A DNA stretch of 64,000 bases. It comes from Candidatus Omnitrophota bacterium. GTDB taxonomy: Bacteria > Omnitrophota > Gorgyraeia > JACQQV01. Positions within the stretch are counted from its first letter, which is position 1, and the number at the start of each line of letters is the position of its first letter. The notes under the pieces were generated by a model. That model ran no database searches. It saw only the letters and a list, made by a program, of their open reading frames with translations, and was not told the DNA's origin. Positions 941 to 55,682 of this stretch are shown in pieces. Where the stretch lies: the NCBI GenBank assembly GCA_016206785.1, contig JACQQV010000046.1, positions 19,512 through 83,511 of the forward strand, given 5' to 3'. A program made the position numbers and the translations under genes.

Positions 941-1090
941 TCCATAAAATTCCAAATCCCAAATGACAAATGTCAAAGCACAAAATCCAAAATAAATCCA
1001 AAGTCCAAATCACAAAACCTTGTTTGGGTTTTTGTCATTTGAATTTTGAGTTTATTTTGACATTTGGATTTTGTCATTTGTCATTGCTTT
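941..1090. repeat. Family A imperfect palindromic intergenic element (copy 1), built of TGACAAA/TGTCAAA heptads and CCAAAAT units
   Basis: Left arm AATGACAAATGTCAAAGCACAAAATCCAAAATAAA and right arm TTTATTTTGACATTTGGATTTTGTCATTTGTCATT are near reverse complements. The same element recurs at 2685..2760 and 5565..5702. Confidence 0.6.
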
Positions 1091-2654: not shown

Positions 2655-2684
2655 GTTAAACTCCGCTCATGAACATTCAGTTTA

Positions 2685-2760
2685 ATTCCAAATGACAAAG
2701 CACAAAATCCAAAATAAATTCAAATTTTCAAATAACAAAACGTTTTGTCATTTGTCATTT
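2685..2760. repeat. Family A palindromic element (copy 2, shorter)
   Basis: CCAAATGACAAAGCACAAAATCCAAAATAAATT ... GTTTTGTCATTTGTCATTT. It starts 5 nt after the ilvE stop and ends at the mcsA RBS. Confidence 0.6.
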
Positions 2761-5564: not shown

Positions 5565-5702
5565 GAAAATCCAAATACCAAATGTCAAAATTCAAAGCAC
5601 AAAATAAATTCAAAATTCAAATTCCAAAACGTCAACCCCGGTTTTGTCATTTGACATTTGTGCTTTGAATTTATTTTGAATTTTGTGCTTTGTCATTTGA
5701 CA
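5565..5702. repeat. Family A palindromic element (copy 3)
   Basis: In transcript orientation it begins TGTCAAATGACAAAGCACAAAATTC 1 nt after the lysS TAA stop. It ends GAATTTATTTTGTGCTTTGAATTTTGACATTTGG just before lolC. Confidence 0.6.
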
Positions 5703-12484: not shown

Positions 12485-12556
12485 AAGGACACAACAAGCA
12501 ACAAGTAACAAGCAACAAGATTGGCCTTTCGTCGCTTGTCTCTTGTCTCTTTCATA
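12485..12556. repeat. Family B imperfect palindromic element (copy 1): ACAAG(C)AACAAG repeats facing CTTGTCTCTTGTC
   Basis: GACACAACAAGCAACAAGTAACAAGCAACAAGATTGGCCTTTCGTCGCTTGTCTCTTGTCTC. Related copies lie at 27985..28052 and 55575..55680. Confidence 0.55.
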
Positions 12557-12559
12557 CTC

Positions 12560-13048
12560 TTAGTCCGTAATCAGGTTATAGGCCTCTCGGGCACATTCCA
12601 GAGGATCGGTCAGGATCTGCTCCCGGGTGAAGCGCAAGACATGGTAGCCATCCTCCTTGAGCGCCTTATCCTTCACTTCATCCATCATCTTCTCTTCGTC
12701 GCCCTTTTGAGAGGCGGGCGCATCATCGCACTCGATGACAATACGGACATCTTCTTTCTTGGTCTTGTAAATCACAAGGAAATCGACTTCAAACTCCCCG
12801 ATCTTCACGGCATGACCGATCGCGAGGCGGAGCATCACCTTCTCCACCACCTGGCCTTCTTTCGTCGTCTTGTAGATGAAATAGTCATTCATCAGGTCCC
12901 AGTAAAGGTGACAGAGCGCAATATACATGAATTGCTCCGTCGGATTCTGGATATCCCATTCATCCAAAAGGGCATATATTTTTGTTTCAAACGAGATCGC
13001 TTGACGTTTGCTGACCGCCTCCAAAAAGTATTTCACATTGGCAAGCAT
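12560..13048 (-). CDS. DUF559 / Vsr-like endonuclease-domain protein
   Basis: 162 aa. The C-terminal motifs VRIVIECDD and GYHVLRFTREQI are typical of the DUF559 (Mrr/Vsr-fold) family. Confidence 0.55.
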   Translation of the reverse strand: MLANVKYFLEAVSKRQAISFETKIYALLDEWDIQNPTEQFMYIALCHLYWDLMNDYFIYKTTKEGQVVEKVMLRLAIGHAVKIGEFEVDFLVIYKTKKEDVRIVIECDDAPASQKGDEEKMMDEVKDKALKEDGYHVLRFTREQILTDPLECAREAYNLITD

Positions 13049-15312: not shown

Positions 15313-16308
15313 TTAAAAGTAAAGTCGCTTATAAGAGCGCTCCTCCCAAAAACGTTTTTGGGTCTCGGAGAATGAATCACTTTCCAGATCCACCCCTCCC
15401 AAATCGCACAAGAGGCATTTAACCGACCCGCCCCCTTTACTGGAAAATTCCGACACATCCACGACTACAGGCTTCACCCCTTTGGATGCAATGCGCTGTA
15501 GCAGGCCTTTAGAAACAGCTGCAGGTAAGAAAAAATAAGGAGTTGCCTTAAGGAGGACCTGAAAACCGTTTGCGGCAAACGATCGTGCATCCTCTTCTCC
15601 AAGGGGAATGAGCCGATTTTTAAAAAGGGCGAGGAGTTCTTTTTGAGAAGAACGCTCAAGGGCTGGAAGATAGGCCAAAAGGTGCTCTTTCTGAGGACCC
15701 AACGGAGAAAGGGCCGTATCCCCATGATAAAACGCTTCGTCCACGAGTGCGAGAGACAAAATAGAGTGATTTTCCACAATCCTCTTCAAGAACTCAAGAT
15801 TCCGGACATCGCTTCGAAATCCATAAAGACGCCTGTAGGGAGGAAACCCAAACCGCGGGACAAACCGTTGTTTCACAATTTTGCCGGATGTGAAAAGAAA
15901 CGCAGAAGATGTCTCGATAAAGTCGGCCTCTCCTTCAAAAGGAAAAGGAATTTCTCCGATTCTAAAACCGAGTCGGCTCAAGAACGCTTCGTAGAGAGGC
16001 CGCTCCCCTTTTCTTCCAGGGGTGAGGTTACTTAAGTAAAAGCGCCCCCTGAGCCCTGTGTTTTTCGGATAAAGAAATCCGGCATTTGCGGGAAAAACAG
16101 AACCGGGGTTTTCTATGGAAGGAGGAAGGACAACGACGTGGACGCCGAGATCGGTCAAGGTCTTCGCAAAGGTGTGCCACTGTTCTTTGGCCCTCTTCAG
16201 ATCGACCTTTTTGCGAAGGCCCCAGATATTCCGTGTGTGGGGATTGCTTCCCGAACGGATATGAAAATGTTCAGGATCCCCCATGAGAACGGCAGGCACA
16301 AGGGCCAT
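15313..16308 (-). CDS. amidinotransferase-superfamily protein, AstB-like (candidate N-succinylarginine dihydrolase, short form)
   Basis: The C-terminal motif VDVSEFSSKGGGSVKCLLCDL matches the AstB active-site region [23 protein letters not shown]. It sits next to astD and astA. At 331 aa it is shorter than E. coli AstB (447 aa). Confidence 0.5.
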   Translation of the reverse strand: MALVPAVLMGDPEHFHIRSGSNPHTRNIWGLRKKVDLKRAKEQWHTFAKTLTDLGVHVVVLPPSIENPGSVFPANAGFLYPKNTGLRGRFYLSNLTPGRKGERPLYEAFLSRLGFRIGEIPFPFEGEADFIETSSAFLFTSGKIVKQRFVPRFGFPPYRRLYGFRSDVRNLEFLKRIVENHSILSLALVDEAFYHGDTALSPLGPQKEHLLAYLPALERSSQKELLALFKNRLIPLGEEDARSFAANGFQVLLKATPYFFLPAAVSKGLLQRIASKGVKPVVVDVSEFSSKGGGSVKCLLCDLGGVDLESDSFSETQKRFWEERSYKRLYF

Positions 16309-16332
16309 CCCCCCTCCTCTTTCAAAGCCAAA

Positions 16333-16393
16333 GCGGGACTAAGTCCCAATGACGGTTAGACCTATCCCCGATGAAGGCGGGACTTAGTCCCTC
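16333..16393. repeat. Family C element (copy 1): two GCGGGACT(A/T)AGTCCC 13-15-mer palindromes 31 nt apart
   Basis: GCGGGACTAAGTCCC at 16333..16347 and GCGGGACTTAGTCCC at 16377..16391. The astD stop TAA is the TTA inside the second palindrome. Confidence 0.6.
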
Positions 16394-17853
16394 CTCCCGA
16401 ACGGTTTTTCAAGGACAGCGACAGGATAGGTACAGAGATGCGGCACAAAGGCACCGACCGGGTGATGGTTGCCGCTCCGTTTCACCCCCCCGAAAGGAAG
16501 ACGGGCGCTACTATAGATCGTCGCCTGATTCCAATTGAGAAGACCGACCTCCAACTCACGGAAGATCTTTTCGTATTCTTCTTTCCTCTTCGAGAAGAAA
16601 CTGGCGATAAGACCGTAGCGGGAGGCGTTGTGGATGCGAACCGCCTCCTCCAAAGCATCCACAATGTAGATCGCCACATTCGGTCCGAAAATCTCTTCCT
16701 CTGTATAGGGACCTCGAGGGGTCTCTCCTTTCTTCACCTCCCTTAAACAGACAGAAGGTTGAACATAATAGCCTCGTCTCTCTTTCTCAAGAGGGATTCC
16801 CTTTTGAAGTACCTCGAAATTTTCCTTGGGGGCCAAGGCGGTGTGATAGAGGTACTTCTCAACCGCATCTTGACTGACTAAAGGACCCATGAAATTCTTC
16901 TCATCGAGTCCGTATCCGACCGTGACACTCTTTGCCTTATCCATAAAAGACTTAAGAAACGGCTTTGCGATTTTCTTTTCAAGAATGATCCGGCTTGTGG
17001 CATTGCACCGCTGCCCTGAAATCGAAAAGGAACCGAGCAAACAGTTCTCGACGGCGTTTTGAAGGCCGGCATGCCGTGAAACGATCGCCGCATTCTTCCC
17101 CCCCATCTCCAAGGCTACAAGTTTATCCACCTGATGCACTGTCTCTTCCCGAATCTTCTGTCCGGTGGCATAGGAACCGGTAAAAATAATGCCATGAATT
17201 TTCTCGTGGGCTACAACGGTCTTCCCGACACGCCCATCCCCCTGAACTAGATTAAAGATTCCTCTCGGGAGGCCAGTCTCATGCCACAACTCGGCAAGCA
17301 ACTGTCCCACAAAAGGAGTGAATTCCGACGGTTTAAAGATAACGCTGTTTCCCAAAAGGATGGCGGGGAGGATTTGACTATTCGGAATATGTCCCGGGAA
17401 ATTGAAAGGACCAATAATCGCTAAGATCCCTCTCGGTTTGTATCGTAAAACGCCTCTGACTCCTCTTTTGAGGGGATACGATTTTCCTTCGGAAAGACGT
17501 CCTGCTTCTTTACTCGCTAAAGGAACCCGTTCGATCATCCGATCGACTTCCTGCAACGCATCCCGTATCGGCTTCCCCATTTCACGGGTGATGAGTTGCG
17601 CCAGTTCTTCGCGCCGCCGCCTCAAGGCTTTGTGAAATTGGAGAATGGCTCTCCGACGAACCGTAAACGGTTTTTCTCTCCAGACCGAAAACCCTGCTTG
17701 GGCCGCCGCGACCGCTCGCTCTACCTCCTCCTCTGAAAACGCAAATGTCCCGACCGGATGGTCCAGGTCTCCAGGGTCCTCACTGAGAAGCGTCTGGACA
17801 TTTCCTTGCGGCTTTTGAAAATGACCCCCAATATAATTTCCTTTAAAAATCAT
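16384..17853 (-). CDS. astD: succinylglutamate-semialdehyde dehydrogenase (AstD-type aldehyde dehydrogenase)
   Basis: GPFNFPGHIPNSQILPAILLGNSVIFKPSEFTP closely matches E. coli AstD [33 protein letters not shown]. The C-terminus PFGGVKRSGNHHP matches PFGGIGASGNHRP. Confidence 0.8.
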   Translation of the reverse strand: MIFKGNYIGGHFQKPQGNVQTLLSEDPGDLDHPVGTFAFSEEEVERAVAAAQAGFSVWREKPFTVRRRAILQFHKALRRRREELAQLITREMGKPIRDALQEVDRMIERVPLASKEAGRLSEGKSYPLKRGVRGVLRYKPRGILAIIGPFNFPGHIPNSQILPAILLGNSVIFKPSEFTPFVGQLLAELWHETGLPRGIFNLVQGDGRVGKTVVAHEKIHGIIFTGSYATGQKIREETVHQVDKLVALEMGGKNAAIVSRHAGLQNAVENCLLGSFSISGQRCNATSRIILEKKIAKPFLKSFMDKAKSVTVGYGLDEKNFMGPLVSQDAVEKYLYHTALAPKENFEVLQKGIPLEKERRGYYVQPSVCLREVKKGETPRGPYTEEEIFGPNVAIYIVDALEEAVRIHNASRYGLIASFFSKRKEEYEKIFRELEVGLLNWNQATIYSSARLPFGGVKRSGNHHPVGAFVPHLCTYPVAVLEKPFGRRD

Positions 17854-26733: not shown

Positions 26734-29124
26734 TTACCTCTTTCCCCTCCAGGTGTCCATCTGGATTCTCCTTCCCTCTGAGATCATACGGATCGCGCCG
26801 GAGTGGAGGGTTTGGTAGGTTGGAATTTTGAAATCATCAAGGAGAGAAATAATTTTAGGTGAAGGAAGGTTGTAAGTTTCTCTTTCTCCAACGCTGATCA
26901 CGGCCGCATCCGGTGAGACTGCCTTCAAAAATGAGACCGCCTCTTTGCCCAAGTCTCCTCCATGATGCGGCATCTTCAAGATATCTGCATCAAGATTCTG
27001 TTTGGAATCTTCCAGACTCCTGATCGCATCTTCTTGGATGTCGGCTGTGAAAAGAAATACATTTTCTCCATGCGTCAGTCTGAGAACCACACCGTTATTA
27101 TTCTCTTCCTTCTTGATGCCACTTAAAAAGGGATGCGGCGGATGAAGCACTTCGAGGTGAACGTCTGGGAACCCAGTGATTTTCTGACCTCGTTGAAGAA
27201 GAATGGGTTTAAGGCCAAGTGTTTCAATGGTTCGCTGATACCTTCGGTAAGCAACATTTTCCTTGGGAAATCCACTTTCAAAGACATAGGTCGGGTGGAA
27301 AGTTTCGAGTATCGTCGGAATCCCCCCAACATGATCTTGGTCCGCATGAGTCACGAGAACTGCGTCGAGTCGATGAATCCCTTTTTTGCGAAGAAAAGGG
27401 GTAATGATTTTCCGACCGGCGTCAAACTCGTCTCTCCGGTCTCCCCCATCCATCAAAAGGTTTCCCCTCCCAGGAAACTGGAGAAAGATCGCATCCCCGT
27501 GACCCACGTTCAGAAAAGTAACCTCCAATTTCGGAGTCTTGAAAAGCGTCGACCAGACCCAGAAGTTACAAAGCGCAAGACCCAAGACGACCGCTTTCCA
27601 CCTGAATCGTTCCAATGGCTTCAAAAGGAAAACGCCGAGGATCGCATAATAAAGAAAAAGAAATGCGCCGGGAATTGAGGTGTGAAATGATCCGAAAGGA
27701 ATCTTATCAAAAATTTTTGTACCGTGGATGAGAAGCGAGATAAAGAAATTTTCAAGTGTGAGAAGCCATTCCGATAGGACCGGAACGAACTGGCCCAGGA
27801 GGAGCCATAAGATGCCAACGCCCACAATTGGAAAAAGAAGGGGGATCACGAAAAGGTTTGCAATCCAACTCACAGGGCTCACCACATAAAAATGGTACGC
27901 GACGACCGGCCAGATCCCGATCCAGACCCCGACGGAAATCAGAAACAGATTAAACGCGTAGCCCGCAACGCCCTTTATCTTAGCGACAAGCAACAAGCGA
28001 CAAGTGGCAAGTGACATCCGTGCACTTTGTTGCCTGTTGCTTGTTGCTTTCAGAGAAATGCGCTTACAGAGTTCACTGCTAAGAAACAGGAAAAAGACCG
28101 ACAGAAACGAAAGCTGAAATCCTACTTCAAAAAGGGAAAAGGGATTCCACAGAAGAAGGGCGAGATAGGCAAAAGAGAGGGTATTTAAAAGTGAAACTTC
28201 CCTTCCCAAAAGAGATCCCAGAAGGTAAAGAGCGATCATGACGGTTGCCCGCACAACCGGCGGAGAGCCGCCCACAAAGGCGGAAAACCCGACGAGAAAG
28301 AGAAGCGTTAGAAGAAATGAGAGCTCTTGGCGCATCCAGCACCACTTCAAGAGAAAGTAAAGGAGCGCGGCAAGAACCCCCACATGGAGACCGCTTATCG
28401 AAAGAAGATGAACAGTTCCTGTCCGTGTAAAGAGATCCCAAAGATCTCCCTCCAAACGCGTCCGGTCTCCCACCACCATGGCGCCGAAAAGAGAGGCCTC
28501 TTTTGGGGGGAGAAATTCATAAATCTGCCGCAATGCTTTTTGTCTAAAGGAAATGAAACCCCTCGCGAGAAAAGAAACATGATTTTTGCCGAGCGGCAGA
28601 AGTCCATGATGCGACCTTACCTTTAGGATTCCGTCGATCCCCCGACCGTTCAAATAAGAGGCAAGATCAAATTCGCCCGGATTTCCTGGACTCCGGAGTT
28701 TCTTAAGATCCCCTTCAAGCATCACCTCCTCTCCATAAGAAGGAAGGGAATGGCTTGAGACGAAAAGCCGAAGTCTTCCTGAAACCGGCTCCCACCTCTT
28801 TCCCCTTTTTAAGGCGAGACAGCGAAGGGTTTCATCTTTGTCAATCATTCCTATGATGCGGTGTGTTCCCTGTTCTCCCGGAATAAAATGGGAAATATTC
28901 AAGGGGCTTTCAAAGAAAGCAAGTTCCCACCGGAGCATACCGAGAGAAAGAAGAACAAGACTTAAGAGCGGCGTCGAGGCCCTGGACTGGCGCAGGCAAA
29001 AACCGAGGAGACAAAAGAGTAACGCAAAAAGGAAGATCACCCAGAAGGGAAAGTGAAAATACGAGGAGAGGAGGAGGCCCAGTGTAAAAAAAAGAGCGGC
29101 TAAAAGGAGGGAGGATTCATTCAA
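26734..29124 (-). CDS. comEC: DNA internalisation competence protein ComEC/Rec2
   Basis: 796 aa. A polytopic membrane N-terminal region, a competence domain and a C-terminal metallo-beta-lactamase motif VLVTHADQDHVGGIP are present. Confidence 0.85.
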   Translation of the reverse strand: MNESSLLLAALFFTLGLLLSSYFHFPFWVIFLFALLFCLLGFCLRQSRASTPLLSLVLLSLGMLRWELAFFESPLNISHFIPGEQGTHRIIGMIDKDETLRCLALKRGKRWEPVSGRLRLFVSSHSLPSYGEEVMLEGDLKKLRSPGNPGEFDLASYLNGRGIDGILKVRSHHGLLPLGKNHVSFLARGFISFRQKALRQIYEFLPPKEASLFGAMVVGDRTRLEGDLWDLFTRTGTVHLLSISGLHVGVLAALLYFLLKWCWMRQELSFLLTLLFLVGFSAFVGGSPPVVRATVMIALYLLGSLLGREVSLLNTLSFAYLALLLWNPFSLFEVGFQLSFLSVFFLFLSSELCKRISLKATSNRQQSARMSLATCRLLLVAKIKGVAGYAFNLFLISVGVWIGIWPVVAYHFYVVSPVSWIANLFVIPLLFPIVGVGILWLLLGQFVPVLSEWLLTLENFFISLLIHGTKIFDKIPFGSFHTSIPGAFLFLYYAILGVFLLKPLERFRWKAVVLGLALCNFWVWSTLFKTPKLEVTFLNVGHGDAIFLQFPGRGNLLMDGGDRRDEFDAGRKIITPFLRKKGIHRLDAVLVTHADQDHVGGIPTILETFHPTYVFESGFPKENVAYRRYQRTIETLGLKPILLQRGQKITGFPDVHLEVLHPPHPFLSGIKKEENNNGVVLRLTHGENVFLFTADIQEDAIRSLEDSKQNLDADILKMPHHGGDLGKEAVSFLKAVSPDAAVISVGERETYNLPSPKIISLLDDFKIPTYQTLHSGAIRMISEGRRIQMDTWRGKR
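27985..28052. repeat. Family B palindromic element (copy 2), read through in frame inside comEC
   Basis: AGCGACAAGCAACAAGCGACAAGTGGCAAGTGACATCCGTGCACTTTGTTGCCTGTTGCTTGTTGC. It encodes ...LKATSNRQQSARMSLATCRLLLVAK... of ComEC. Confidence 0.5.
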
Positions 29125-29480: not shown

Positions 29481-31976
29481 CTAAGTCACGACGAGATTGA
29501 CTAACTTTTTCGGGACAATCACCCACTGTTTGACCGTTTTCCCGTCAAGCCATTTTCTGATCGATTCATCGTTAAGAATTTTTTCCTTGAGGAGCTCATC
29601 GGAAAGATCGACAGCGACATTCAGTTTCGAACGGACCTTCCCGTTCACCTGAATGACAATGGTCACTTCCTCCACCGCAATCGCGTTGGGATCATAGGAA
29701 GGCCAAGAAGCGCGAAAGACGCTTCCCTTCCGCCCGAGGGAAGACCAGATCTCTTCAGCCAGATGAGGGATGAAAGGGGCAAGGAGAAGGACAAGGAGCT
29801 CAAAGGCTTCACGAAGGAGGACCCGTTCGTTCTCTTGGAGAGTTTTTTCTTCTTCACCCAAATACCGATAGATTTCATTCACGAGTTCCATCATGGAGGC
29901 GATCGCCGTGTTGAAGCGGAAAGAGCCCTCCATGTCTTCTGTCACCTTTTTAAGGGTGAGGTGAAGTTTTCTCCGAAGAGAGACCCCTTCTTCATTCAAA
30001 CCCGAAACGGCCGAGGAGACCGGAACTAAGGCTCCGCGCTTTGAAAGAAGCTGTGAAAGGCGCCAGACTCGATTCAGGAATCGAAAGGCGCCTTCGACAC
30101 CCCGATCGCTCCATTCGGCGTCCTTCTCGGGAGGACCGATAAAGAGGGTGTAGAGCCGAACGGTATCTGCACCAAAGCGCTCGATGAGTTCATCGGGGCT
30201 CACGACATTTCCCTTTGACTTCGACATCTTAAATCCGTCTTTGATGATCATCCCCTGAGTAAAGAGCCGTTCAAAGGGTTCATCGAAACCGACATATCCC
30301 AAGTCATGAAGGACCTTCACGATAAAGCGGGAGTAAAGAAGGTGAAGAATTGCATGTTCTACGCCTCCGATATATTGATCGACGGGAAGCCAACGATTGA
30401 CGAGCGCCGTGTCAAAGGGTCGCTCGGCATTCTGCGGAGAAAGGTAGCGGAGAAAGTACCAACTGGAGTCGACAAAGGTATCCATCGTATCAAATTCACG
30501 TTTCCCCTCCCCTTTGCATTTGGGGCAACGGGTTTTGACGAATTCGGGAGCGTCCTTTAAAGGAGATTCGCCGGTCGGTCTGAAACGAACATTTTCCGGT
30601 AGGAGAACTGGGAGATCCTTCTCAGGAACCGGAACAATCCCGCAGGCATTACAGTAGAGGATCGGAATGGGGGCCCCCCAATAGCGCTGCCGTGAAATAA
30701 GCCAGTCCCGGAGCCGATAGGCAGAGGTGCGTCGGCCCATCCCTTTTTTCTCCATGAAATGGGCGATCTTCTCCATCGCCTCCCGGTTTCCGAGGCCGTT
30801 GAAAAGTTCAGAATGGACCATGATCCCTTCCTCTATATAGGCTTCTTTCATGGTGAGCGGGTTGAGCGGGTTTTCCGGTTGGTCGATGACCACTTCGATG
30901 GGAAGACCGTACTTCTTGGCAAATTCAAAATCCCTTTGGTCATGGGCGGGAACCGCCATGACCGCCCCTGTTCCATATTCAAGAAGAACATAATTTGCAA
31001 CCCAGAGCGGAATTTTTCTGCCATTTACAGGATTCACGACATGCCAGCCGGTAAAAACCCCCTCCTTCTTGACTTCAAGGGCAGAGCGTTCTTCCTGGGG
31101 TTGCCGCAAGATCCGTTCCACAAACTGTTGAATCTCACCTTTATTTTTGGAATCACGAATCAGTTCTTGAAGGCGGGGATGCTCAGGGGCAAGCACCATA
31201 TAGGTTGCTCCGTAGATCGTGTCCACGCGTGTTGTAAAGCAGGTCAGCGGCTCTCCTTCGCCGTCTACCGGGAAATGGATTGCAACTCCCTCGTTCTTCC
31301 CGATCCAATTTCGTTGCATCACGCGAACCCTCTCGGGCCAATGGGTGAGTTGAGCGATATCCTTGAGGAGCCGTTCTGCATAATCGGTGATTTTGAAGAA
31401 CCATTGTTCAAGAAATTTTTGAATGACCGGTGTTTCGCACCGCTCACAGGCCCCGTTTACAACCTGTTCATTCGCAAGGACGGTCTGACAGGAGGAGCAC
31501 CAGTTGACGGCCGCCCGTTTTTTGTAGGCGAGACTTTTTTCATAGAGTTTCAAGAAAATCCACTGGCTCCACTTGTAATAATCGGGAAAGCAGGCGGTCA
31601 CTTCCCTCCGCCAGTCGTAACAGACCCCCCATTGCCGGAGCTGCCGCTTCATGGTCGCTATGTTGTTTAAGGTCGAGATCTTCGGATGGAGCCCTCCTTT
31701 GATCGCAGCGTTTTCTGCCGGAAGACCAAAGGCATCCCATCCTATCGGGGCCAGGACGTTAAAGCCGCGCATCAGTTTGTAGCGAGCAACGACGTCTCCA
31801 ATGATGTAGTTCCGACCATGTCCCACATGGAGGGTAGCAGAGGGATAGGGGAACATGACAAGGCAGTAATATTTCGTTTTATCCGTCCGGGAGGTATCGA
31901 CCTCAAAAAGTCTCTCTTTTTCCCAGAAAGATTGCCATTTCGGTTCGATCGTCCTAAAAGGATAGATTTCTTCCAT
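29481..31976 (-). CDS. leuS: leucine--tRNA ligase
   Basis: The HIGH motif (PYPSATLHVGHGRNY) and the KMSKS motif (KMSKSKGN) are present. The start is set at MEEIYPFRTIEPKWQSFW, matching E. coli MQEQYRPEEIESKVQLHW. The longer track ORF would overlap tRNA-Ala. Confidence 0.95.
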   Translation of the reverse strand: MEEIYPFRTIEPKWQSFWEKERLFEVDTSRTDKTKYYCLVMFPYPSATLHVGHGRNYIIGDVVARYKLMRGFNVLAPIGWDAFGLPAENAAIKGGLHPKISTLNNIATMKRQLRQWGVCYDWRREVTACFPDYYKWSQWIFLKLYEKSLAYKKRAAVNWCSSCQTVLANEQVVNGACERCETPVIQKFLEQWFFKITDYAERLLKDIAQLTHWPERVRVMQRNWIGKNEGVAIHFPVDGEGEPLTCFTTRVDTIYGATYMVLAPEHPRLQELIRDSKNKGEIQQFVERILRQPQEERSALEVKKEGVFTGWHVVNPVNGRKIPLWVANYVLLEYGTGAVMAVPAHDQRDFEFAKKYGLPIEVVIDQPENPLNPLTMKEAYIEEGIMVHSELFNGLGNREAMEKIAHFMEKKGMGRRTSAYRLRDWLISRQRYWGAPIPILYCNACGIVPVPEKDLPVLLPENVRFRPTGESPLKDAPEFVKTRCPKCKGEGKREFDTMDTFVDSSWYFLRYLSPQNAERPFDTALVNRWLPVDQYIGGVEHAILHLLYSRFIVKVLHDLGYVGFDEPFERLFTQGMIIKDGFKMSKSKGNVVSPDELIERFGADTVRLYTLFIGPPEKDAEWSDRGVEGAFRFLNRVWRLSQLLSKRGALVPVSSAVSGLNEEGVSLRRKLHLTLKKVTEDMEGSFRFNTAIASMMELVNEIYRYLGEEEKTLQENERVLLREAFELLVLLLAPFIPHLAEEIWSSLGRKGSVFRASWPSYDPNAIAVEEVTIVIQVNGKVRSKLNVAVDLSDELLKEKILNDESIRKWLDGKTVKQWVIVPKKLVNLVVT

Positions 31977-32017
31977 AGTTGTAAATGACGTCATCTTTTC
32001 GTATAATCGGACACCAT

Positions 32018-32091
32018 GGGGCTGTGGTGAAGCGGGATCACACGACAATGGCATTGTCGGGTCACGGGTTCGATTCCCGTCAGCTCCACCA
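32018..32091 (+). tRNA. tRNA-Ala (anticodon GGC)
   Basis: Hand-folded cloverleaf. The acceptor GGGGCTG/CAGCTCC carries the G3:U70 alanine identity pair. The anticodon stem is CGACA/TGTCG with loop ATGGCAT. The T-loop is TTCGATT and CCA is encoded. Confidence 0.85.
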
Positions 32092-32627: not shown

Positions 32628-35600
32628 TTAGACAGAATTGAGGTAGGTTTCGTACGCTTTGCGGTACTCCGAACCAATGGGGATGGGTGCAGCCTGAATC
32701 ATATTTCCTTCCATTTTTAGAAATTGAGCCAGTTCCCCCAAATTCCCGCGTGCCTGCCAAGTGTGCTGAACCACAGAGACTTCTGCCGCAACATTCACAA
32801 GAAAAGAGGCAAGATTTAAGGCGTTAGGAGTTGCCGAATCGGATGACCAATTAAAAGAAGGATCAAAAACGACCATTCTGACCTTCGACTGAATTTTCGG
32901 CTTTGCGCCCGGCGTTTTAGATTCCACAAGAGCCAGTCCCGTTTGCATTCGAGGATTCGGCATTGATACAACACCGGAACCTTTCCATAGATTTATATTG
33001 TCACGGGAGGCAATAACCACGACATCCGGACTTTCAAGCAAAGGAAAATCAATATTTTGATCTGCAAATTTTTCCCAAAGTAAATCTTCTAATGTCTTGG
33101 CATAATATCTCGACCGAATGGCGCTGCCATACCACATGCTTGCCTCTTCCTTCATCTCGACGAGAATTTGCTCTCGTGTTTTTCCATATGCGCGGAGGCG
33201 GTATTCAAGGTTTTCAGGTGAAATTCGCAAAAATTCTGCAATCTCCTCGTCGGTCCCTTTTATTCTCAGTTTTTCAAACAGCATACCTTGAGTGACAATG
33301 ACGCTGAATTGCTCGGGGCGCAGAGCGTGTTTCGCCAAATAAGCGTCAATTTCTCCGGAAGTCACCGAGGAATCGTCGATAATCAGGGTATTCTTAAAAA
33401 GACTCTTTCGATTGTCTCGAGGATTTCCGGTAGCGTCCGCCAGATGGTCTAAGGCAAGAGAAAAACTCTCCCCCAGATCTTCCCTTAATAAAGATGAATG
33501 GTAGAGGTGAAATTTGGGTTTGGCATTTCTTTTGAGCTCTTCGCTCGGCGTGCGATCCGCATATTTTCCTTGTGCCATGAGCCACTCTGGATCTCGAGCC
33601 ACATACCGCTCGGCACCGTCCCGAACCGCAATCGTCTCCGGCTGATGGACGATGAGGACTCGGTTGTCGTTCCATTCTCGATGGCTCTTTACTTCGGCCT
33701 CCTTCGACAATTGGTCGTTTCGGCGGTTGAGAATCGCGTTTGCCGGTTCACCGCGCCCCGCCCATCCGGCAATGTTCTCGGCAAGCCACTGCCGTTTCCC
33801 TTTCAGGTCGTACGCGACACCATCATCTCCAAGAAGGACCGTACTTTGATCTCCCAAAGGAAGCTCTCCTTCCAGAAACCATGCCTCCTCCCGTAAATAG
33901 GGTCTCATCCGCCGATCCCCATAGGAATTGGTAAATCTCCAGTAAGGACCGACCCTCGCTGCCCGCCCGAAGTCCTGACTCCCTTCATGGTAAACCGCTC
34001 CCTTTGCAAGGGCAATGTTTCTTCCCTCTTCATCCAAAGCCGGGTTCTGTTCGGGAGTGGTGAGTCGAATTTCTCCCTGATCCGCAATCATGAGCCACGC
34101 ATCCCCTCTTCCGAATCCGGAGACCCTTCGTTCATCCCCTACCTTCCGGATAAAGGCAACGGCGACGAGTGCGCCCGAATCCATCTTTTCGACAAGAGCG
34201 AGAAGGGCGCGGTCTGTTGTCTCATAAACGTCGCGGAAGTTTTCTCCCTTTTCACGAAGGGCATTTTCAAAAATGGAAGGGAGTTTCCGCTTGATCAGGT
34301 GCGCCGCCTCTTCGTCATAATGCCCATCGATCACAGCGATCAAATCTCCCTCAATGTTTCCTACCCTCACCGGATGAACAAGGGTGCGGCTCTCTTGGCC
34401 TTCCCGTCCCGTGCCGATATCGGCCACATAACTGACTTTTCCGCCCGAGACGGCCTCTTTCTCCCCCGCTTCGTACTCCACATTCCAGCTGTACCGACCG
34501 TCCTTAAAGAGCCAGAAACCGTTCACAAACTTGTGGTTTTCCATCCGCCACCGGCCGTCGAGATTATCCTCAAAAATATCGATTCCCCGTTTCAGTTGTT
34601 CTTCCGAATGGAACGGGTATCCCAAAACAGGGTGGTGGGTCTGTCCCGCCCGGACCATCGTCAGTTCTTCGTGTACCTGCTCGAGCGCTTCTTGAATTTT
34701 GGCCTCCATCAAAAGATCCACATCCAAAGGGTTTTTCGTTGCACTCTTGGTTTTACTGAGAATGTGCCGCAGCACCAGATCGGGCCGGAGGAGAACCCCT
34801 CCGATGATATCGTTTTGAGGACCGGGTCCGAGTTTTTGGGTGAAGTGAATCAGATGCTCCCCTGCTTTGACCCGCTGTGCCACGATACTTCCAAAGCCGA
34901 GGTACGTTTCTTCCCCATCTTCCACTTCAAAAATGGTGTTCGTTCCGACAAAGGTCGTCTCGAGAATAATTCTCCCGGAGGAATCCGGTCGGTCCGGCAC
35001 CACCGTGGAGCCGCCCCCCCAGTTGGGGGCATTCGCCACCTCTATGGTTTTTCCTTTCGCCCTGAACGTGATCGGCCGTGCGACGACATTCAAAGCCCTT
35101 CCGGCAAGATGGTGGTTTGTGTAAAGTCCCGAGACGAAAACGTTCACATGGAGGGAACCGATGCCCCGATTAACCCCCGGCGTCGAGTCGTCGAAATGGC
35201 TCGAAAGGACCGTCGCATAGGGCTCGAGCAGATGGTATTTTCCGATATTGCTGAGTTTCGCCAGAAAGAGACTCCCCTCTGTTTCGTCTCCGATAAAAGT
35301 ATTTTGAACGCGGCCCATGCTCAAGCGAACCCCATTTCCGATGTCTGAGATGTTTCCCTCCGTTGAATCGATGAACATCCGGACAAGACGTGCTCTTCTT
35401 CCGATTCTCGCGTATTGAATGCCGGATCCCCAAACGAAAGTCTCTTCACCAACGGTGGTATCGATCAGATGGGAACCGAAAATTTTCGCTCCCTTCCGGA
35501 TAACCGTCTTCCCTTCCAAAATCACGCCCGGGCCGATAACGGCCCCTTCCTCAATTTCAACCTGATTGCCGATGACGGCGGTCGGGTCAATATCGGCAAT

Positions 35601-38600
35601 GGCACCGAATTTCTCCAGAGGATTGACCGTTTCTTCGCCCCCCCTCGGCTCAAATGCTTCCGGAAGATGCTCTGCCGTCAGAATCGGTTCATAGTCGGAC
35701 ACCCGGTCGCGGGGGATCTTCGGGTCGTTTTCAGGAAGTTCTTTGAAAAGGGTCTGGCGGTAATCCGTTTCGGAAACGCCCTCTAAGGCGGTCCTCTTTA
35801 AATCGAGCGCTTCATGGGTCCATAGGCCATTCTCAAATTTCCAGCGGGGGTCTTTCTCTCCATTCCGATATCGCCACGCACCGCTATCGATATGGAGCCG
35901 GTATGCGTCCCGCCATTTTTCAAGAAGGGCGATCCGTTCGTGGTCCTGGTCATCCCTGAATTTTGCCTTCTCCTCTGCAAGCTCCGCTTCCACCAACGCC
36001 TTCCCGGTCTCAAGCATCTCCACCGGAAAATCATCACCCGTTGACTTTTTCTCGTCGGGCAGGGCATCCACCATCTCCTGCATCAGGGTAAAGATTGTAT
36101 CGGGACTGTAGATAAAAAGGAAAGGAACAGAAACCGCTTTCCGGCTCAAACCGAACTTTGCCGCACCCGGAAGTGCCATTCCCCAATCATCCCACGCCGG
36201 TTTCCCCCGAACAGGAGAACCGATCAGGGAGAAGGGCGTCGCATGCGTGAGATTCCGGTTTGCCATGAGCGTCAGGGGATCGGCAGAAGGTTGTCCTCCC
36301 CCAAGGGCGATCCACCGTAAAAACGGACTCAGGGTGGAGAGAGGGTCTACTATAAGATAGCCGTGGGCACTCGATTCTGAGCCGTCGATTCCTCTGATCC
36401 GGACCGGCGGAAAAAGCGCCTTCGGGTCCCGTGGAACAATCCGAATCATCTCCTCTTCCTTAAATTCTTCATAAAGACCGTGCGTGTGCGCTTTAAGCGG
36501 ATTCAGGGTGCCGAGGTAACTTGAATCGACTACGTTCCGTCCCATATGGGAGATCGCGGGGAGAGAAAAACTCTTTTCGACTTTAAGTTTCCGTGTATCT
36601 GGATCAAACCGGAGAGAGACGATTTCATTCGTATGGAGCGCCGAATCAATAAAAGCCTGCTTGTCCGCGTAGAACTTGTAACCGAGCCACGCCTCGCTCA
36701 CTTCAAGCGGAAGCTCGGGCGTCCCTTTCAGGGTTATTTCATGCTCCGTATGCACCAGCGTCATTTTGATATGCCGCAGCCGGTTGTTCCGTCCGATGTC
36801 GCTGTTTTGATAGACGCCGCTTTCGATTTCCGTTCCCCGGCCGACAGTCGTGTTGACCACTCTTGCGCCACTGATCCGGGCTTCCGGCCCGACCCGGGTC
36901 TGGTTCCCGGAAACCGTATAGACCCTTTTTCCGGAAAGATCTTTCCGGTCGAAGGACCAGTCGTCAAAGTTACCGGTTGTCTCCAAAACAGTATCGGATA
37001 AGACGGCGTTGTCCCCAACCAATGCTCCTGAAACAAAACTTGATTCAACAGTTGCCTGAACACCGATCTCCACGGCGTGGTCCTTTGTCGCTTGGATGTA
37101 ACTTCTTCCGATAATCCGGGCGCCCGGAAGAATTGCGACAAACCCTTCCCTCACATCGAAGACCACTTGATCGCCGACGATAGCGGCCCGTTCCAGACCG
37201 ATGATATTCCGCGGATCCCCGAGAATCTTATACCCTCCATCCCGGGCGGTGGCAAATTTTTGGTCTTCGGTCTTTGGTCTTTGGTCTATCTTTTCTCCCC
37301 CATCCCGGGCGGTTGTGGGGCCCGAGGAGCCGCGACGCCTACGAAGTGCGAGTTCATTCTTAAGAGTTTCTATTTCTCTCTCCAACAAAAATTTTGAAGA
37401 GGGTGAGGCGGTTTCGATCTGTGAAGTTAACTGGGCAATTTTGTCTTGCAGTTCCTGGGCTGTTTCTTTCCCTCTTCCTCCATCCTTGGCATGGGTTCTT
37501 TCAGTATCGTCCTCGGCGGCGCCAAAGGGTTCGATGCGAATCCCTTCAACGGACCAATCCTCACCAAATCGCGGCTTGGACCCTTTCCCTTCGACGGTCA
37601 CAACTTCCCTTGCGATGGTTGCAAGTGCCTTTGAACGCAAGCGGGCCGCTTTGACTCTCGCCTTCAGTTCTTCTGTAGGACCGGTGATCTCTGTCGCCGT
37701 TTTAAAAGGGAAGAAACCATTGAAATTTTCGCCTTCAGGAAACGTGAGATAAACGAGTTGCAACTCTATCCCCTTCTCCTCTTTTGAGAAATCTTTCAAT
37801 ATCTTCATCGATTCCTCATAAACCGCCCTATGACGCGGATGGGGATCATTGGGATCGTTTAACAAAATGATGATTTTGCCGCCCCGGCGGTACATCCCCA
37901 AAAAAGTTTTGAGGTTGCTTCTCAGTTGCGTCGCAGCCTGCCGGACGATTTCCTCATCAGGCATTTCCGGGTTTTGGCGAAGGATATCCGTGCCGATAAG
38001 GTTTGGGGGATCGGTTCCCAACCATCGTGCTGCATTTTTTTCTTCTTTTTCTCTTATTTCAGCCTTCCTCAACCGCTTTGTGGACAAGGGGATCGTTTCA
38101 TCCTCGTCTATCTCTGGCATATAAGCCCCGGATCCTGTCGATAGAATCCAGCTCTGAACATCCATTCCATATTTCTTAGACAGATACACCAGGGCTCCTC
38201 CCATGATCGCAATATCATCCGGATGCGCCGCAATCACGAGGAGGGGAACCTTTCCTCTGGAAAAGGTCTTGAACGACTCACGCCCCCACACCATTTCTCT
38301 GGATGAAAAAAGAGGCTTACCCCCTTTGAGAGTCACGGTGACATAGATTTCAGCATGAGGATGCTTTAACCCAAACTCCAGGGCATGCGCTGTGTCCGCA
38401 TTTCTCGCCATCAAATGATAGGGGAGGCGGCTATGCTGGCTGAGGTGCGCCTTGATCGCTTTCTCTTTGATCGCCGCGACCTCGTTGGTGAAAGGAACGA
38501 CCAGATTAAACCGACCTTGAACCTCAAGAGATTTGTAAAAAATGAAAATGGCCGACCGCCCCTGCGACCCCAGGACTTGTTCAACGTTGTCCCGTAGGAT

Positions 38601-40673
38601 CAGGTCATGCAAAGGTAAAAATACAAAATCGGGACGAAACTTGCGCAGATTTTTCCGAAGGGCCTTGAGGGCCTCCTCGTTCCTGTCCACAGTCATCCGG
38701 ATGATGGTGTTTCCTCTCTGTTCAAAAGCACCGATAAGGTTTCCTGCATAGAAATCAGGATCCCATGCTTTCAACTGGACAACAGCCACTTTTTTATCTT
38801 GAGGAATCGAGAATTGATGAACCCCTTCCACCTCCCGATCACCCAGAAGCACCTTCAGGTTTTCTTCCAACATCCTTCTCACACGACTTACGGTTAATTC
38901 CTTCTCCCCTCCCTCTTTGGCATACTTCTGTCCCAGCTGTCTCCCCTGCCCATCCTGGGCTGCTCCTCTTTCTAAATCACCCTTCAAGAAGCGCGGGACA
39001 CCCCGTTCGAGGGCGGGGAGCTGGCGAAGGTTTTCATCGGCAGGCGTGGCAGGCTTTGCCTTTTCTTTCAGGATCTCGTGATAAAGTTCAAGGTTTGAAG
39101 GCTGCGTAATTTTAGGAGCGATGACCATGTAGGAATAGTTCTGCTCCCTTAGAAGTCTCGTGATCTGAGCCGTATGAAAACCTCCTGCAATAAGGACCAC
39201 CACATCGACATGTTCCCCATTCATCTTTGAGATGGCATTTTCCACGAGGGCATTATCCCGCTTCATCCCGGTTTCATAAAAAGACTCCAGAAGGGCGAGA
39301 TGATTGTCAATGGGAGAGGTGTCTTCCGGGAAAGAAAGGGTGAGTTTATACTGCTGCATTTTCCCGACGAGAAATTTCTTCCACCCCTTAATGGGGAAGC
39401 CTTGACGATCTTGCTGATACGCATGAAGGTCTTCGGGAGAGAGATTTAATTCCAGAAAATTGAGGAGGATGTCCAGTCTATCGGAGATTTCAGAAAGGGT
39501 TCGTTCGTCATTCGATGTATACAAACGCCCCTTGATCTCTTTTTCAAGGATCTTTCCCTCTCGAAAAAGTTCTACATGGTCGCGGTCTGCATACAGAAGG
39601 ATATAGTCGATATAGAGGTCAAGATCCTGATGGCTTCCTTTGGCCGGGTCTTTCTGCTTCAGGATCTCTTTTAAGAAACCGTAATACTCTTTGGGCCCCG
39701 CTTCATTGAGTTTGTATTTGAGCCCCTTCTCTGCCAAGGAGGTGAGTTCTCCTTTTGAAAGGACCTGCGTCAGTTTTCCAATCAAGGCCTGATGCTGGCC
39801 GTCTACCTTCTGGAAGTCGATTTTCTTCTCTAAGACCGAGGCCTCGAGGAAATTCTTGAAGTTGGGATAGCGGGAAAGATCGACCTTTTCGCTAAGGGCC
39901 ACTCCTCCTAAATACTGGTAGTACTCAACCGCCTGCCCCTTCCCTTCCTCATACGCATATTTCTCACGCTCAAGTTCCTTGAGCCTCGGAGAAAAGAGGT
40001 TCACTTTGAGTGTCTCGACGATCGCCTTGACCGACCGTGCCACCTTAAGGGCTTTTTCTTTAAAGGCATCCACCTTAAAGAAAATATCGAGATTTTTGTC
40101 ATAGAGCTCTTCATCTTCAATCCCCCAGAGGGTGATCGGGTTATCCGATGTGATATCGAGATACTCCTCCCCTGAGATCTTTCCCGCCTTGAGGTATTTC
40201 TCAGCCACTTCAAGGCGCTTTTCTTTACTCGCTTCGGACCTTAGGAACGAAAGACTGGTATCTCCGCTTCCTCCTTCCACCAAGATGAGGCGGAGTCCGT
40301 TTTGTTTGATCAGTTTGTCGAGGATGTTGGCGAGGTTCTTTTGGGCTTCGTAATGAACATGGACATCTTGGATATGGATGACAAGGGGTTTTGGATTTCC
40401 CTGGTAGGTTTCGGAGATGCGGCCATATTCAGGGGGGACCTGAACCGCCTGGACCAGTGTTTTGGGGCGATCCCCCAGAAGACTTAAAGGATCGAGGGCG
40501 GGCTTGGGTGAACCTCTGTTTTCTTCCGGCTTAAATTCTAAATCTTGGGTCTCTCGTTCTTGCTCTTTCTTTTCTTCAACGGACCGGAAGATGCTCCGCT
40601 GGGCGTGGGAGGAAGGAACGATTGAAAAAAGAAAGCATGCCCCTAAGAAAAGGAGGAGGAGTTTCCGTGCCAT
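32628..40673 (-). CDS. giant (2681 aa) secreted multi-domain protein. Domains in order: N-terminal domain paralogous to the 41741..43327 product, a PIG-L/LmbE-like deacetylase, a coiled-coil linker, two left-handed beta-helix (hexapeptide) regions, a PP2C-like phosphatase and an unassigned C-terminal region.
   Basis: This is an uninterrupted 8-kb ORF. The signal peptide is MARKLLLLFLGACFLFSIVPSSHAQ. The PIG-L motifs are VIAAHPDD...NDPHPRH (about 37830..38260). The hexapeptide runs are IGNQVEIEEGAVIGPGVILEGKTVIRKGAKIF and IVGDQVVFDVREGFVAILPGARIIG. The PP2C-like motifs are IDGHYDEEAAHL, FGRGDAWLMIAD and LLGDDGVAYDL (about 33790..34560). The N-terminal 570 aa matches the paralogue (IHIQDVHVHYEAQKNLANIL against IHIQDAHVHYEAQKNLASIL). 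Confidence 0.8.
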   Translation of the reverse strand: MARKLLLLFLGACFLFSIVPSSHAQRSIFRSVEEKKEQERETQDLEFKPEENRGSPKPALDPLSLLGDRPKTLVQAVQVPPEYGRISETYQGNPKPLVIHIQDVHVHYEAQKNLANILDKLIKQNGLRLILVEGGSGDTSLSFLRSEASKEKRLEVAEKYLKAGKISGEEYLDITSDNPITLWGIEDEELYDKNLDIFFKVDAFKEKALKVARSVKAIVETLKVNLFSPRLKELEREKYAYEEGKGQAVEYYQYLGGVALSEKVDLSRYPNFKNFLEASVLEKKIDFQKVDGQHQALIGKLTQVLSKGELTSLAEKGLKYKLNEAGPKEYYGFLKEILKQKDPAKGSHQDLDLYIDYILLYADRDHVELFREGKILEKEIKGRLYTSNDERTLSEISDRLDILLNFLELNLSPEDLHAYQQDRQGFPIKGWKKFLVGKMQQYKLTLSFPEDTSPIDNHLALLESFYETGMKRDNALVENAISKMNGEHVDVVVLIAGGFHTAQITRLLREQNYSYMVIAPKITQPSNLELYHEILKEKAKPATPADENLRQLPALERGVPRFLKGDLERGAAQDGQGRQLGQKYAKEGGEKELTVSRVRRMLEENLKVLLGDREVEGVHQFSIPQDKKVAVVQLKAWDPDFYAGNLIGAFEQRGNTIIRMTVDRNEEALKALRKNLRKFRPDFVFLPLHDLILRDNVEQVLGSQGRSAIFIFYKSLEVQGRFNLVVPFTNEVAAIKEKAIKAHLSQHSRLPYHLMARNADTAHALEFGLKHPHAEIYVTVTLKGGKPLFSSREMVWGRESFKTFSRGKVPLLVIAAHPDDIAIMGGALVYLSKKYGMDVQSWILSTGSGAYMPEIDEDETIPLSTKRLRKAEIREKEEKNAARWLGTDPPNLIGTDILRQNPEMPDEEIVRQAATQLRSNLKTFLGMYRRGGKIIILLNDPNDPHPRHRAVYEESMKILKDFSKEEKGIELQLVYLTFPEGENFNGFFPFKTATEITGPTEELKARVKAARLRSKALATIAREVVTVEGKGSKPRFGEDWSVEGIRIEPFGAAEDDTERTHAKDGGRGKETAQELQDKIAQLTSQIETASPSSKFLLEREIETLKNELALRRRRGSSGPTTARDGGEKIDQRPKTEDQKFATARDGGYKILGDPRNIIGLERAAIVGDQVVFDVREGFVAILPGARIIGRSYIQATKDHAVEIGVQATVESSFVSGALVGDNAVLSDTVLETTGNFDDWSFDRKDLSGKRVYTVSGNQTRVGPEARISGARVVNTTVGRGTEIESGVYQNSDIGRNNRLRHIKMTLVHTEHEITLKGTPELPLEVSEAWLGYKFYADKQAFIDSALHTNEIVSLRFDPDTRKLKVEKSFSLPAISHMGRNVVDSSYLGTLNPLKAHTHGLYEEFKEEEMIRIVPRDPKALFPPVRIRGIDGSESSAHGYLIVDPLSTLSPFLRWIALGGGQPSADPLTLMANRNLTHATPFSLIGSPVRGKPAWDDWGMALPGAAKFGLSRKAVSVPFLFIYSPDTIFTLMQEMVDALPDEKKSTGDDFPVEMLETGKALVEAELAEEKAKFRDDQDHERIALLEKWRDAYRLHIDSGAWRYRNGEKDPRWKFENGLWTHEALDLKRTALEGVSETDYRQTLFKELPENDPKIPRDRVSDYEPILTAEHLPEAFEPRGGEETVNPLEKFGAIADIDPTAVIGNQVEIEEGAVIGPGVILEGKTVIRKGAKIFGSHLIDTTVGEETFVWGSGIQYARIGRRARLVRMFIDSTEGNISDIGNGVRLSMGRVQNTFIGDETEGSLFLAKLSNIGKYHLLEPYATVLSSHFDDSTPGVNRGIGSLHVNVFVSGLYTNHHLAGRALNVVARPITFRAKGKTIEVANAPNWGGGSTVVPDRPDSSGRIILETTFVGTNTIFEVEDGEETYLGFGSIVAQRVKAGEHLIHFTQKLGPGPQNDIIGGVLLRPDLVLRHILSKTKSATKNPLDVDLLMEAKIQEALEQVHEELTMVRAGQTHHPVLGYPFHSEEQLKRGIDIFEDNLDGRWRMENHKFVNGFWLFKDGRYSWNVEYEAGEKEAVSGGKVSYVADIGTGREGQESRTLVHPVRVGNIEGDLIAVIDGHYDEEAAHLIKRKLPSIFENALREKGENFRDVYETTDRALLALVEKMDSGALVAVAFIRKVGDERRVSGFGRGDAWLMIADQGEIRLTTPEQNPALDEEGRNIALAKGAVYHEGSQDFGRAARVGPYWRFTNSYGDRRMRPYLREEAWFLEGELPLGDQSTVLLGDDGVAYDLKGKRQWLAENIAGWAGRGEPANAILNRRNDQLSKEAEVKSHREWNDNRVLIVHQPETIAVRDGAERYVARDPEWLMAQGKYADRTPSEELKRNAKPKFHLYHSSLLREDLGESFSLALDHLADATGNPRDNRKSLFKNTLIIDDSSVTSGEIDAYLAKHALRPEQFSVIVTQGMLFEKLRIKGTDEEIAEFLRISPENLEYRLRAYGKTREQILVEMKEEASMWYGSAIRSRYYAKTLEDLLWEKFADQNIDFPLLESPDVVVIASRDNINLWKGSGVVSMPNPRMQTGLALVESKTPGAKPKIQSKVRMVVFDPSFNWSSDSATPNALNLASFLVNVAAEVSVVQHTWQARGNLGELAQFLKMEGNMIQAAPIPIGSEYRKAYETYLNSV

Positions 40674-55564: not shown

Positions 55565-55574
55565 CAATCAATTG

Positions 55575-55680: not shown

Positions 55681-55682
55681 CT

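Follow-up and report, generated by a model that had tools for sequence, protein, structure and literature searches.

The 64,000-nt stretch of a contig from Candidatus Omnitrophota bacterium (GenBank assembly GCA_016206785.1) analysed here, in the following called the window, encodes an intact comEC/rec2 gene on its minus strand. A palindromic repeat lies inside this gene and is read in frame as part of the protein; it consists of degenerate 7-nt units arranged as two arrays that face each other (ACAAGNN and NNCTTGT). The features of the locus are the following.

26734..29124, minus strand: comEC/rec2 open reading frame (ORF) of 796 aa, intact, host of the hairpin (ORF list, Pfam, orthologue synteny).
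27982..28049, no strand assigned: core of the heptamer-repeat hairpin, reaching about 27978-28056 with the outer stem pairs (arrays from Tandem Repeats Finder (TRF), inverted arms, fold z-scores).
27982..28016, plus strand: left arm, (AGCGACA)x5, corresponding to ACAAGNN units (TRF period 7, 5.0 copies, 82% matches).
28027..28049, plus strand: right arm, (TTGTTGC)x3.3 (TRF period 7, 3.3 copies), 86% complementary to 27982-28003.
27982..28050, minus strand: the element as translated, codons K359-A381, KATSNRQQSARMSLATCRLLLVA (codon table, protein and DNA alignments).

The 796-aa ORF combines the Pfam domains DUF4131 (oligonucleotide/oligosaccharide-binding (OB) fold), Competence and Lactamase_B. 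Judged by this OB fold, the competence transmembrane (TM) domain and the metal-binding beta-lactamase domain, the deduced product is ComEC/Rec2. It is 100% identical to the ComEC of an NCBI metagenome-assembled genome (MAG) labelled 'Candidatus Omnitrophica', and it matched the solved ComEC chains 30bt and 9vc6 in a PDB sequence search. A Foldseek search of the PDB with the structural model aligned the beta-lactamase domain to 9ic4 with a target-normalised TM-score of 0.89; only this domain was recovered, full-length ComEC entries being absent from the Foldseek matches. All columns invariant over 16 aligned ComECs are kept in the window protein. The metallo-beta-lactamase HxHxDH residues are kept as well, with H593, D597, H598, D695 and H720 invariant in the alignment. 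The gene order LeuRS-ComEA-ComEC-PilZ (LeuRS, leucyl-tRNA synthetase) is common to the window and the syntenic orthologues P0002 (~73% identity) and P0004 (~59%).

The element in comEC measures 67-78 nt and is an imperfect palindrome of degenerate 7-nt units. Its best inverted arms (27982-28003 and 28027-28048) are 22 nt long, 86% complementary and separated by a spacer of 23 nt, most of which is made up of the last two, degenerate units of the left arm (GTGGCAA and GTGACAT). Adjacent units of the left arm are never identical (AGCGACA AGCAACA AGCGACA AGTGGCA AGTGACA). As RNA, the 86-nt comEC stretch reached a folding energy of -36.3 kcal/mol on the plus strand (z = -5.2) and -33.1 kcal/mol on the minus strand (z = -4.8), and none of 200 dinucleotide shuffles folded as well. 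With at most one mismatch, ACAAGNNACAAG was found 13 times in the window, compared with 2.85 expected occurrences and a count that none of 100 shuffles reached; 11 of the 13 matches fall within the three ACAAG elements named in this study, that is, the comEC copy and copies 1 and 3 introduced below. The gene and its element were reproduced without gaps by a separate Logan assembly of run SRR12113385, in which the sole mismatch is located at 29128, outside of the element. Logan contigs from other runs end short of the element; L226, for example, stops at window position 27647. Beyond the window, Logan contigs contributed a mere ~1.7 kb of further sequence.

The original prediction had described a palindrome situated wholly inside the intact 796-aa comEC gene. 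Both the quoted sequence and its translation, ...SLKATSNRQQSARMSLATCRLLLVAKIKG..., were present as described, and the core could be placed at 27982-28049. In the 16-sequence alignment, the window protein alone has additional residues in the interval from the FQLSFLSVFF helix to the GVWIGIWPVVAYHF helix: the segment is missing from all 15 orthologues including the syntenic ones at ~73% and ~59% identity. DNA alignments anchored on both sides gave a net excess of 54 nt, or 18 aa, over each of the two syntenic loci (L001 and L002). The proposed insertion of ~23 aa thus corresponds to the number of repeat-encoded residues (K359-A381) and not to the net gain, because these 23 residues overwrite about five ancestral ones (KYPEN in P0002). 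On the basis of these alignments the palindrome is a lineage-specific in-frame addition to comEC, placed in a loop of variable length, as the alignment check suggested with the prediction was to reveal. The exact placement of the indel is uncertain, as the loop is poorly conserved. The hairpin is simply translated, since its net length is divisible by three and no stop codon occurs in the reading frame of comEC.

The AlphaFold2 model of ComEC, calculated from this alignment, had a mean predicted local distance difference test (pLDDT) score of 82. Values below 50 were restricted to residues 363-381, which lie on the insert between the predicted helices 334-364 and 375-412. The loop from F340 to G403 comprised 32-72 aa (median 47) in 119 ComEC homologues, and with 62 aa that of the window protein is the second longest. 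Hence, disorder is predicted for the insert, which is accommodated in a loop of variable length. The cryo-EM structure of Neomoorella carbonis ComEC revealed a total of eleven TM helices, the first three of which precede the OB fold; this fold and the C-terminal domain are both periplasmic (PMC13539106). Mapping of the model helices onto this topology probably puts the insert into the TM8-TM9 loop, and the topology together with the richness of the loop in K and R suggests a location on the cytoplasmic side.

Two further ACAAG-type hairpins and a number of other heptamer arrays were found in the window.

12485..12556, no strand assigned: copy 1, intergenic ACAAG-heptamer hairpin (TRF arrays of 4.0 and 3.0 copies; fold z = -2.7 and -2.8).
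55574..55681, no strand assigned: copy 3, intergenic nested heptamer hairpin (four TRF arrays of 3.4-4.3 copies; fold z = -4.2 and -5.5).
947..1085, no strand assigned: 'family A' palindrome of degenerate CAAAT-type heptamers (TRF, fold).
2683..2760, no strand assigned: family A copy with truncated right arm.
5566..5704, no strand assigned: family A copy (fold).
37259..37287, no strand assigned: (TTTGGTC)x4.1 direct heptamer array in frame in the 2681-aa ORF 32628..40673 on the minus strand (TRF).

The location of the two other ACAAG copies between genes, at 12485-12556 and 55575-55680, agreed with the original prediction. Copy 1 is located 4 nt behind the stop codon of 12560..13048 (minus strand) and ahead of the start of 11636..12412 (minus strand), and copy 3 occupies the spacer between the convergent stop codons of 54950..55564 (plus strand) and 55683..56519 (minus strand). 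The outer arms of copy 3 consist of GGTTTAC and ACACCGT units and the inner arms (approximately 55604-55657) of ACAAGAG and TGTTGCC units. Its left arm keeps one 7-nt register over about eight gradually changing units (GGTTTAC ... AGTGTAC, GGATCAC, AAGAGAC), and this pattern suggests an array that has grown unit by unit, not a mobile element of fixed sequence. Taken together, five of the six hairpins of the window are intergenic and all five adjoin a stop codon.

These copies had been proposed to form a 'family B', which was not borne out. Exact matches of 12 and 13 nt, ACAAGCGACAAG and TGTTGCCTGTTGC, link both arms of the comEC copy to copy 3, and the local alignment score of these two copies was 27. 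When scored against 120 ACAAG hairpins of other genomes, the comEC copy had 12 best partners with scores of 28-34, all of them ACAAG-heptamer hairpins of unrelated phyla, and neither of the two other window copies was among them. A family by descent was therefore rejected, since the window copies show no excess of similarity over hairpins from elsewhere, a result close to what the prediction itself had named as its refutation. Neither direct repeats flanking copies 1-3 nor conserved termini beyond the heptamers were seen by eye and in flank alignments, with no formal duplication search being run. In the ACAAGNN units of the window copies the core is common and the NN positions vary. By sequence comparison the three copies share a unit motif, without demonstrable common descent, and constitute a motif class.

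The three family A palindromes are up to 139 nt long and share 93% identity over 42 nt between copies. They contain stop codons in all six frames and were found between genes only, each copy lying between a minus-strand stop codon and the apparent next minus-strand gene. Each also carries a promoter-like match (ATGACA-N16/17-TAAAYT/GAAAAT) aimed at the downstream gene. The Logan short-read contig L124, from the same population, ends inside a family A palindrome (window position 998). This hairpin may fragment assemblies, and further copies in the MAG may have been missed in part for this reason. In the ACAAG-type hairpins 2 to 4 of the six frames are free of stop codons (4 in both intergenic copies), which implies that roughly one random insertion in five keeps a gene open. 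Period 7 accounted for 16 of the 43 TRF rows of the window; only one short period-7 array was found in ~34 kb of two related genomes. The in-frame (TTTGGTC)x4.1 array, in the region 37237-37313, has on either side a copy of the 14-nt sequence CCATCCCGGGCGGT, a perfect direct repeat with a distance of exactly 63 nt that gives ARDGG...ARDGG in the protein. Its sequence suggests a duplication-flanked in-frame insertion, the L002 orthologue being too diverged at this site to call an insertion.

Hairpins of the same type are widespread. When a single representative genome of each GTDB species was scanned, the pattern ACAAGNNACAAGNNACAAGN{8,38}CTTGT matched at least 120 stretches, compared with a rough chance estimate of a few tens; the MAG of the window was not among the matches listed. 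The matches listed stem from Acidobacteriota, Clostridia, Gammaproteobacteria (including Pseudomonas), Bacteroidota, Planctomycetota, the candidate phyla radiation (CPR) and three other Omnitrophota. Clean hairpins of the form (NNACAAG)n-loop-(CTTGTNN)n predominate among them, with more than one match in several genomes. In 882 kb around the listed matches 391 arrays had period 7, compared with 52 of period 6 and 74 of period 8, and 188 of the 391 period-7 arrays had other cores. Control scans of viral contigs identified 68 stretches for CAGAA, 22 for ACAAG and 6 for AGACA. Since hairpins with other cores can be equally or more common in these contigs, as seen for CAGAA, the ACAAG core is not special and heptamer hairpins are generic.

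Among the listed matches the hairpins are closely associated with gene ends. They lie a median of 7 nt away from the neighbouring stop codon, with 15 nt or less in 46 of 70 cases, and where both neighbours were callable 23 hairpins were flanked by convergent, 24 by tandem and 3 by divergent genes. From a total of 127 hairpins (window and listed matches) only that in comEC is convincingly inside a real gene. The other in-ORF cases were discarded as mostly upstream regions, signal peptides, lysine-rich stretches or spurious ORFs of high G+C content. The notion that the A-rich arm always comes first, as a signature of bidirectional terminators, was dropped as well: the outer arms of copy 3 are reversed and the reversed pattern was found 14 times versus 22 in viral contigs. 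The genome loci contributed too few cases for a judgement on arm order.

Several of these loci provided additional observations. Heptamers of the GTTTAC/GGTTCAC type co-occur with CTTGTCAC units in loci of Clostridia and Acidobacteriota, as they do in copy 3 of the window. In a 70% G+C Omnitrophota MAG (L114), distinct from that of the window, an AGCGACA/TGTTGCC hairpin very similar to copies 2 (the comEC copy) and 3 of the window was found together with a long hairpin of (CAATCAC)x9.4 facing (TTGGTGA)x9.3, the positions being 1326-1400 and 6892-7041. Direct heptamer arrays of the ACAAGCC type, not hairpins, encode a loop of isoleucyl-tRNA synthetase (KPQATSHKPQAF and KKQETSNKQQAF) just ahead of the WTTTPWT motif in L026 and L087, which belong to one Omnitrophota single-cell genome and one genome labelled Planctomycetia. 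These arrays are (AAGCCAC)x4.7 at 1057-1089 in L026 and AAACAAG/CAACAAG units at 4481-4516 in L087.

Heptamer repeats are over-represented in bacterial genomes, sometimes as inverted pairs, and it has been proposed that they arise by polymerase slippage (PMC4692102, PMC4679880). Known examples are the cyanobacterial short tandemly repeated repetitive sequences (STRR), the GGGAATC-type repeats of Xanthomonas and Nostoc, some of which form inverted pairs, and TAACTGA in Beggiatoaceae (PMC4692102, PMC4679880). According to Mrazek 2007, as cited in the same two sources, no other class of long repeats is as abundant as heptamers in many bacteria (PMC4679880, PMC4692102). The window element resembles the STRR, Xanthomonas and Beggiatoaceae repeats in its tandem 7-nt units with core and variable positions, in the mostly intergenic location of such repeats, and in facing inverted pairs, found in some cases, that are able to form stem-loops (PMC4692102). 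It differs from STRR-type repeats in the Omnitrophota host, in the ACAAG-type units, in the nearly constant pairing to hairpins right behind stop codons and in one copy being translated in a conserved gene. The window units TTTGTCA and CAACAAG presumably resemble STRR2 and STRR3. As the host is not cyanobacterial, STRR in the strict sense do not apply; the element has period 7 with at least three units, a common core with drift between units and mostly intergenic relatives, and thus belongs to the general class of heptamer simple sequence repeats (SSR).

Rickettsia palindromic elements (RPE) are ~100-150 bp long and fall into families, each with a consensus sequence and a conserved peptide that it encodes; they have entered genes dozens of times. 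The original prediction had likened the situation in comEC to these elements. A palindromic repeat in frame in an intact conserved gene, at a position where the fold tolerates an insertion, is indeed common to both (PMC10969869), and the insert is the only segment with pLDDT below 50, in a loop of 32-72 aa in homologues. In this respect the likeness, comprising a lineage-specific in-frame addition, a tolerant loop and an intact gene, held up. It does not extend to the element itself, which consists of 67-78 nt of degenerate heptamers with neither defined termini nor target duplication, has no consensus beyond the unit motif and provides a single intragenic hairpin in 64 kb. No recurrent reading frame or conserved peptide of heptamer hairpins was found in the window, and the second in-ORF array (37259-37287) has a different unit and forms no hairpin.

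The ERIC, BOX, Anabaena and Correia elements are characterized by terminal inverted repeats, target-site duplications and a recognisable consensus. With ERIC, pneumococcal BOX, the miniature inverted-repeat transposable elements (MITE) of Anabaena and the Neisseria Correia elements, the window element shares small inverted repeats, a mostly intergenic location and occasional in-frame fusions (PMC10969869). Of the features that define these MITEs, neither terminal inverted repeats nor target duplication nor a consensus was found by eye, no formal duplication search having been made. In-frame fusions by intragenic MITEs are called 'not unusual' in a 2024 review of MITEs that names RPE, ERIC, BOX and Anabaena MITEs (PMC10969869), so that the claim that such a case is uncommon outside RPEs was not supported. 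Repetitive extragenic palindromic (REP) elements, bacterial interspersed mosaic elements (BIME) and intrinsic terminators are likewise imperfect palindromes just 3' of genes, enriched between convergent genes and plausibly folding in the transcript. REPs carry a GTAG/CGTC head (PMC3733652); no such head was seen at the ends of copies 1-3, whose stems consist of 7-nt periodic units, and in contrast to intrinsic terminators the window hairpins have no U-tract tail. They were not called by a simple terminator scan either, which detected 19 terminator-like sites in the window versus 19.2 expected. An Rfam search of the window returned two tRNAs only and no family matching the heptamer hairpins. 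In its outcome, the element works like an RPE insertion; by size, consensus, recurrence in genes and target duplication it falls outside RPEs and MITEs and fits the class of heptamer SSRs. Heptamer repeats and in-frame intragenic small palindromes have both been described already. We found no earlier description for the host phylum, the ComEC location or hairpins hugging stop codons, none of which is surprising in principle.

We consider it probable that a heptanucleotide SSR hairpin was stranded in frame in a permissive loop of ComEC, where it is carried as a tolerated passenger. Such hairpins normally lie within a few bases behind stop codons, both in the genome of the window and in many phyla. 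Judged by this position, the intergenic ones may fold at transcript 3'-ends and act as a stabiliser or as a non-canonical terminator. One such hairpin has ended up inside comEC, adding about 18 residues to an inter-helix loop. Because this loop varies widely in length, its inserted part has predicted disorder and all conserved residues are intact, there is most likely no consequence for ComEC. As to its arrival, replication slippage, template switching or short-patch copying from another array may be favoured over transposition, and copying seems more plausible than growth in place because the orthologous site is devoid of a heptamer seed.

Several observations weigh against this interpretation. 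The lack of a heptamer seed for in-place growth at the orthologous comEC sites means that some copying from elsewhere is needed, and the exact 12- and 13-mers common to both arms of the comEC copy and copy 3 also fit less well. Despite their location in coding sequence, the arms have kept 86% complementarity, which could mean either recent arrival or selection on structure. The intergenic copies are without U-tails and escaped the terminator scan, so that their role at 3'-ends is based on position. Moreover, the analysis covers 64 kb of one genome with a single intragenic hairpin, and neutrality is an assumption.

Transposition of a non-autonomous mobile element of the MITE or RPE type into comEC, where it survived through in-frame insertion and has the family B copies as siblings, appears unlikely to us. 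The element is palindromic and dispersed, with three copies in 64 kb, the exact ACAAGCGACAAG and TGTTGCCTGTTGC recur in the comEC copy and copy 3, and sampled related genomes are without such arrays, which would suggest recent spread. Its in-frame, loop-located outcome mirrors that of RPEs (PMC10969869), and in the same window family A, with its 93% identity over 42 nt, resembles a conventional dispersed repeat. However, neither target-site duplications nor conserved termini beyond the heptamers were seen by eye and in flank alignments, and the similarity between copies does not exceed that to hairpins of other phyla. The single 7-nt register over about eight drifting units in the left arm of copy 3 is what array growth predicts, and no transposase was seen in the window, in which no search aimed at transposases was made. 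Least probable is that nothing was inserted at all, in which case the segment would be an assembly artefact, would mark comEC as a pseudogene or would stem from an ancestral loop that the other lineages have lost. This view would profit from the poor conservation of the loop and the uncertain indel placement. It has to cope with the absence of the segment from all 15 orthologues including the closest (~73% identity), with its reproduction by a second assembler, and with an intact ORF that has its conserved residues and a confident model (mean pLDDT 82).

Two functional readings are both very improbable. If comEC were a contingency locus, ComEC and with it competence would be switched off and on whenever a single 7-nt unit was gained or lost, 7 not being a multiple of three. 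Phase variation in other bacteria is driven by heptanucleotide tracts, reportedly at the hmw promoters of H. influenzae and in neuO of E. coli, and loss of comEC is not lethal. The absence of identical adjacent units would make slippage inefficient, though, the tract had the same length in the one separate assembly (SRR12113385), and a switch of this kind has no need of the second, palindromic arm. Alternatively, the hairpin might be functional in the comEC transcript or DNA and tune expression as an internal attenuator or terminator, as an RNase site or as a protein-binding site. This would be in line with the strong stem of about -33 kcal/mol on the sense strand and with the complementarity retained within a coding sequence, but not with the lack of a U-tail, of a terminator call and of an Rfam match, with orthologues that do without the element and with its single occurrence. 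More far-reaching ideas, namely an actively spreading class of heptamer hairpins able to become part of proteins in the manner of RPEs, a competence switch based on 7-nt slippage, or an undescribed mechanism at 3'-ends common to many phyla (e.g. a protein reading 7-nt registers), have in our view little chance of being correct. Paired DNA uptake sequences are said to act as terminators in some competent bacteria; such a role for the hairpins was set aside, the same motif being found across many phyla.

Outside the heptamer repeats, a number of further features were noted in the window. A ~120-nt segment occurs twice in inverted orientation, 13 kb apart (43303-43421 and 56548-56666; 88-91% complementary in two blocks), the latter copy being intergenic and adjoining a dCTP deaminase-like gene. 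Short GGGACTWAGTCCC palindromes represent a second, non-heptamer hairpin type of this genome, reminiscent of REP elements. Two of them, 22 nt apart, lie within 16323-16391 in the spacer of 15313..16308 and 16384..17853 (both minus strand), and one more is located at 48679-48725. A 96-nt tandem repeat of 2.7 copies (14902-15158) in the small ORF 14863-15264 (minus strand) encodes 32-residue repeats (WEKTWLNxPxRRHTDSSTTAxRQA...); the N-terminal hydrophobic stretch of this ORF may be a signal peptide. In the neighbourhood of comEC, the longest LeuRS ORF (29481..32054, minus strand) has its first ~37 nt in common with a plus-strand tRNA-Ala(GGC) gene at 32018-32091; LeuRS translation probably begins at an internal Met.

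The hairpin in comEC is a real but fairly ordinary curiosity. It provides a clean example outside Rickettsia of repeat DNA becoming protein, a 7-nt repeat hairpin being translated in a conserved membrane channel. The putative TM8-TM9 loop of ComEC seems to tolerate about 20 extra residues, which may help in engineering or tagging the protein. The by-product of this analysis may outweigh the finding itself: heptamer hairpins are present in many phyla and in phage contigs and are strongly tied to the first bases after stop codons, with an enrichment between convergent genes. Thereby the long-noted, unexplained excess of heptamers in bacteria would gain a concrete positional signature that is testable by mapping of transcript 3'-ends.

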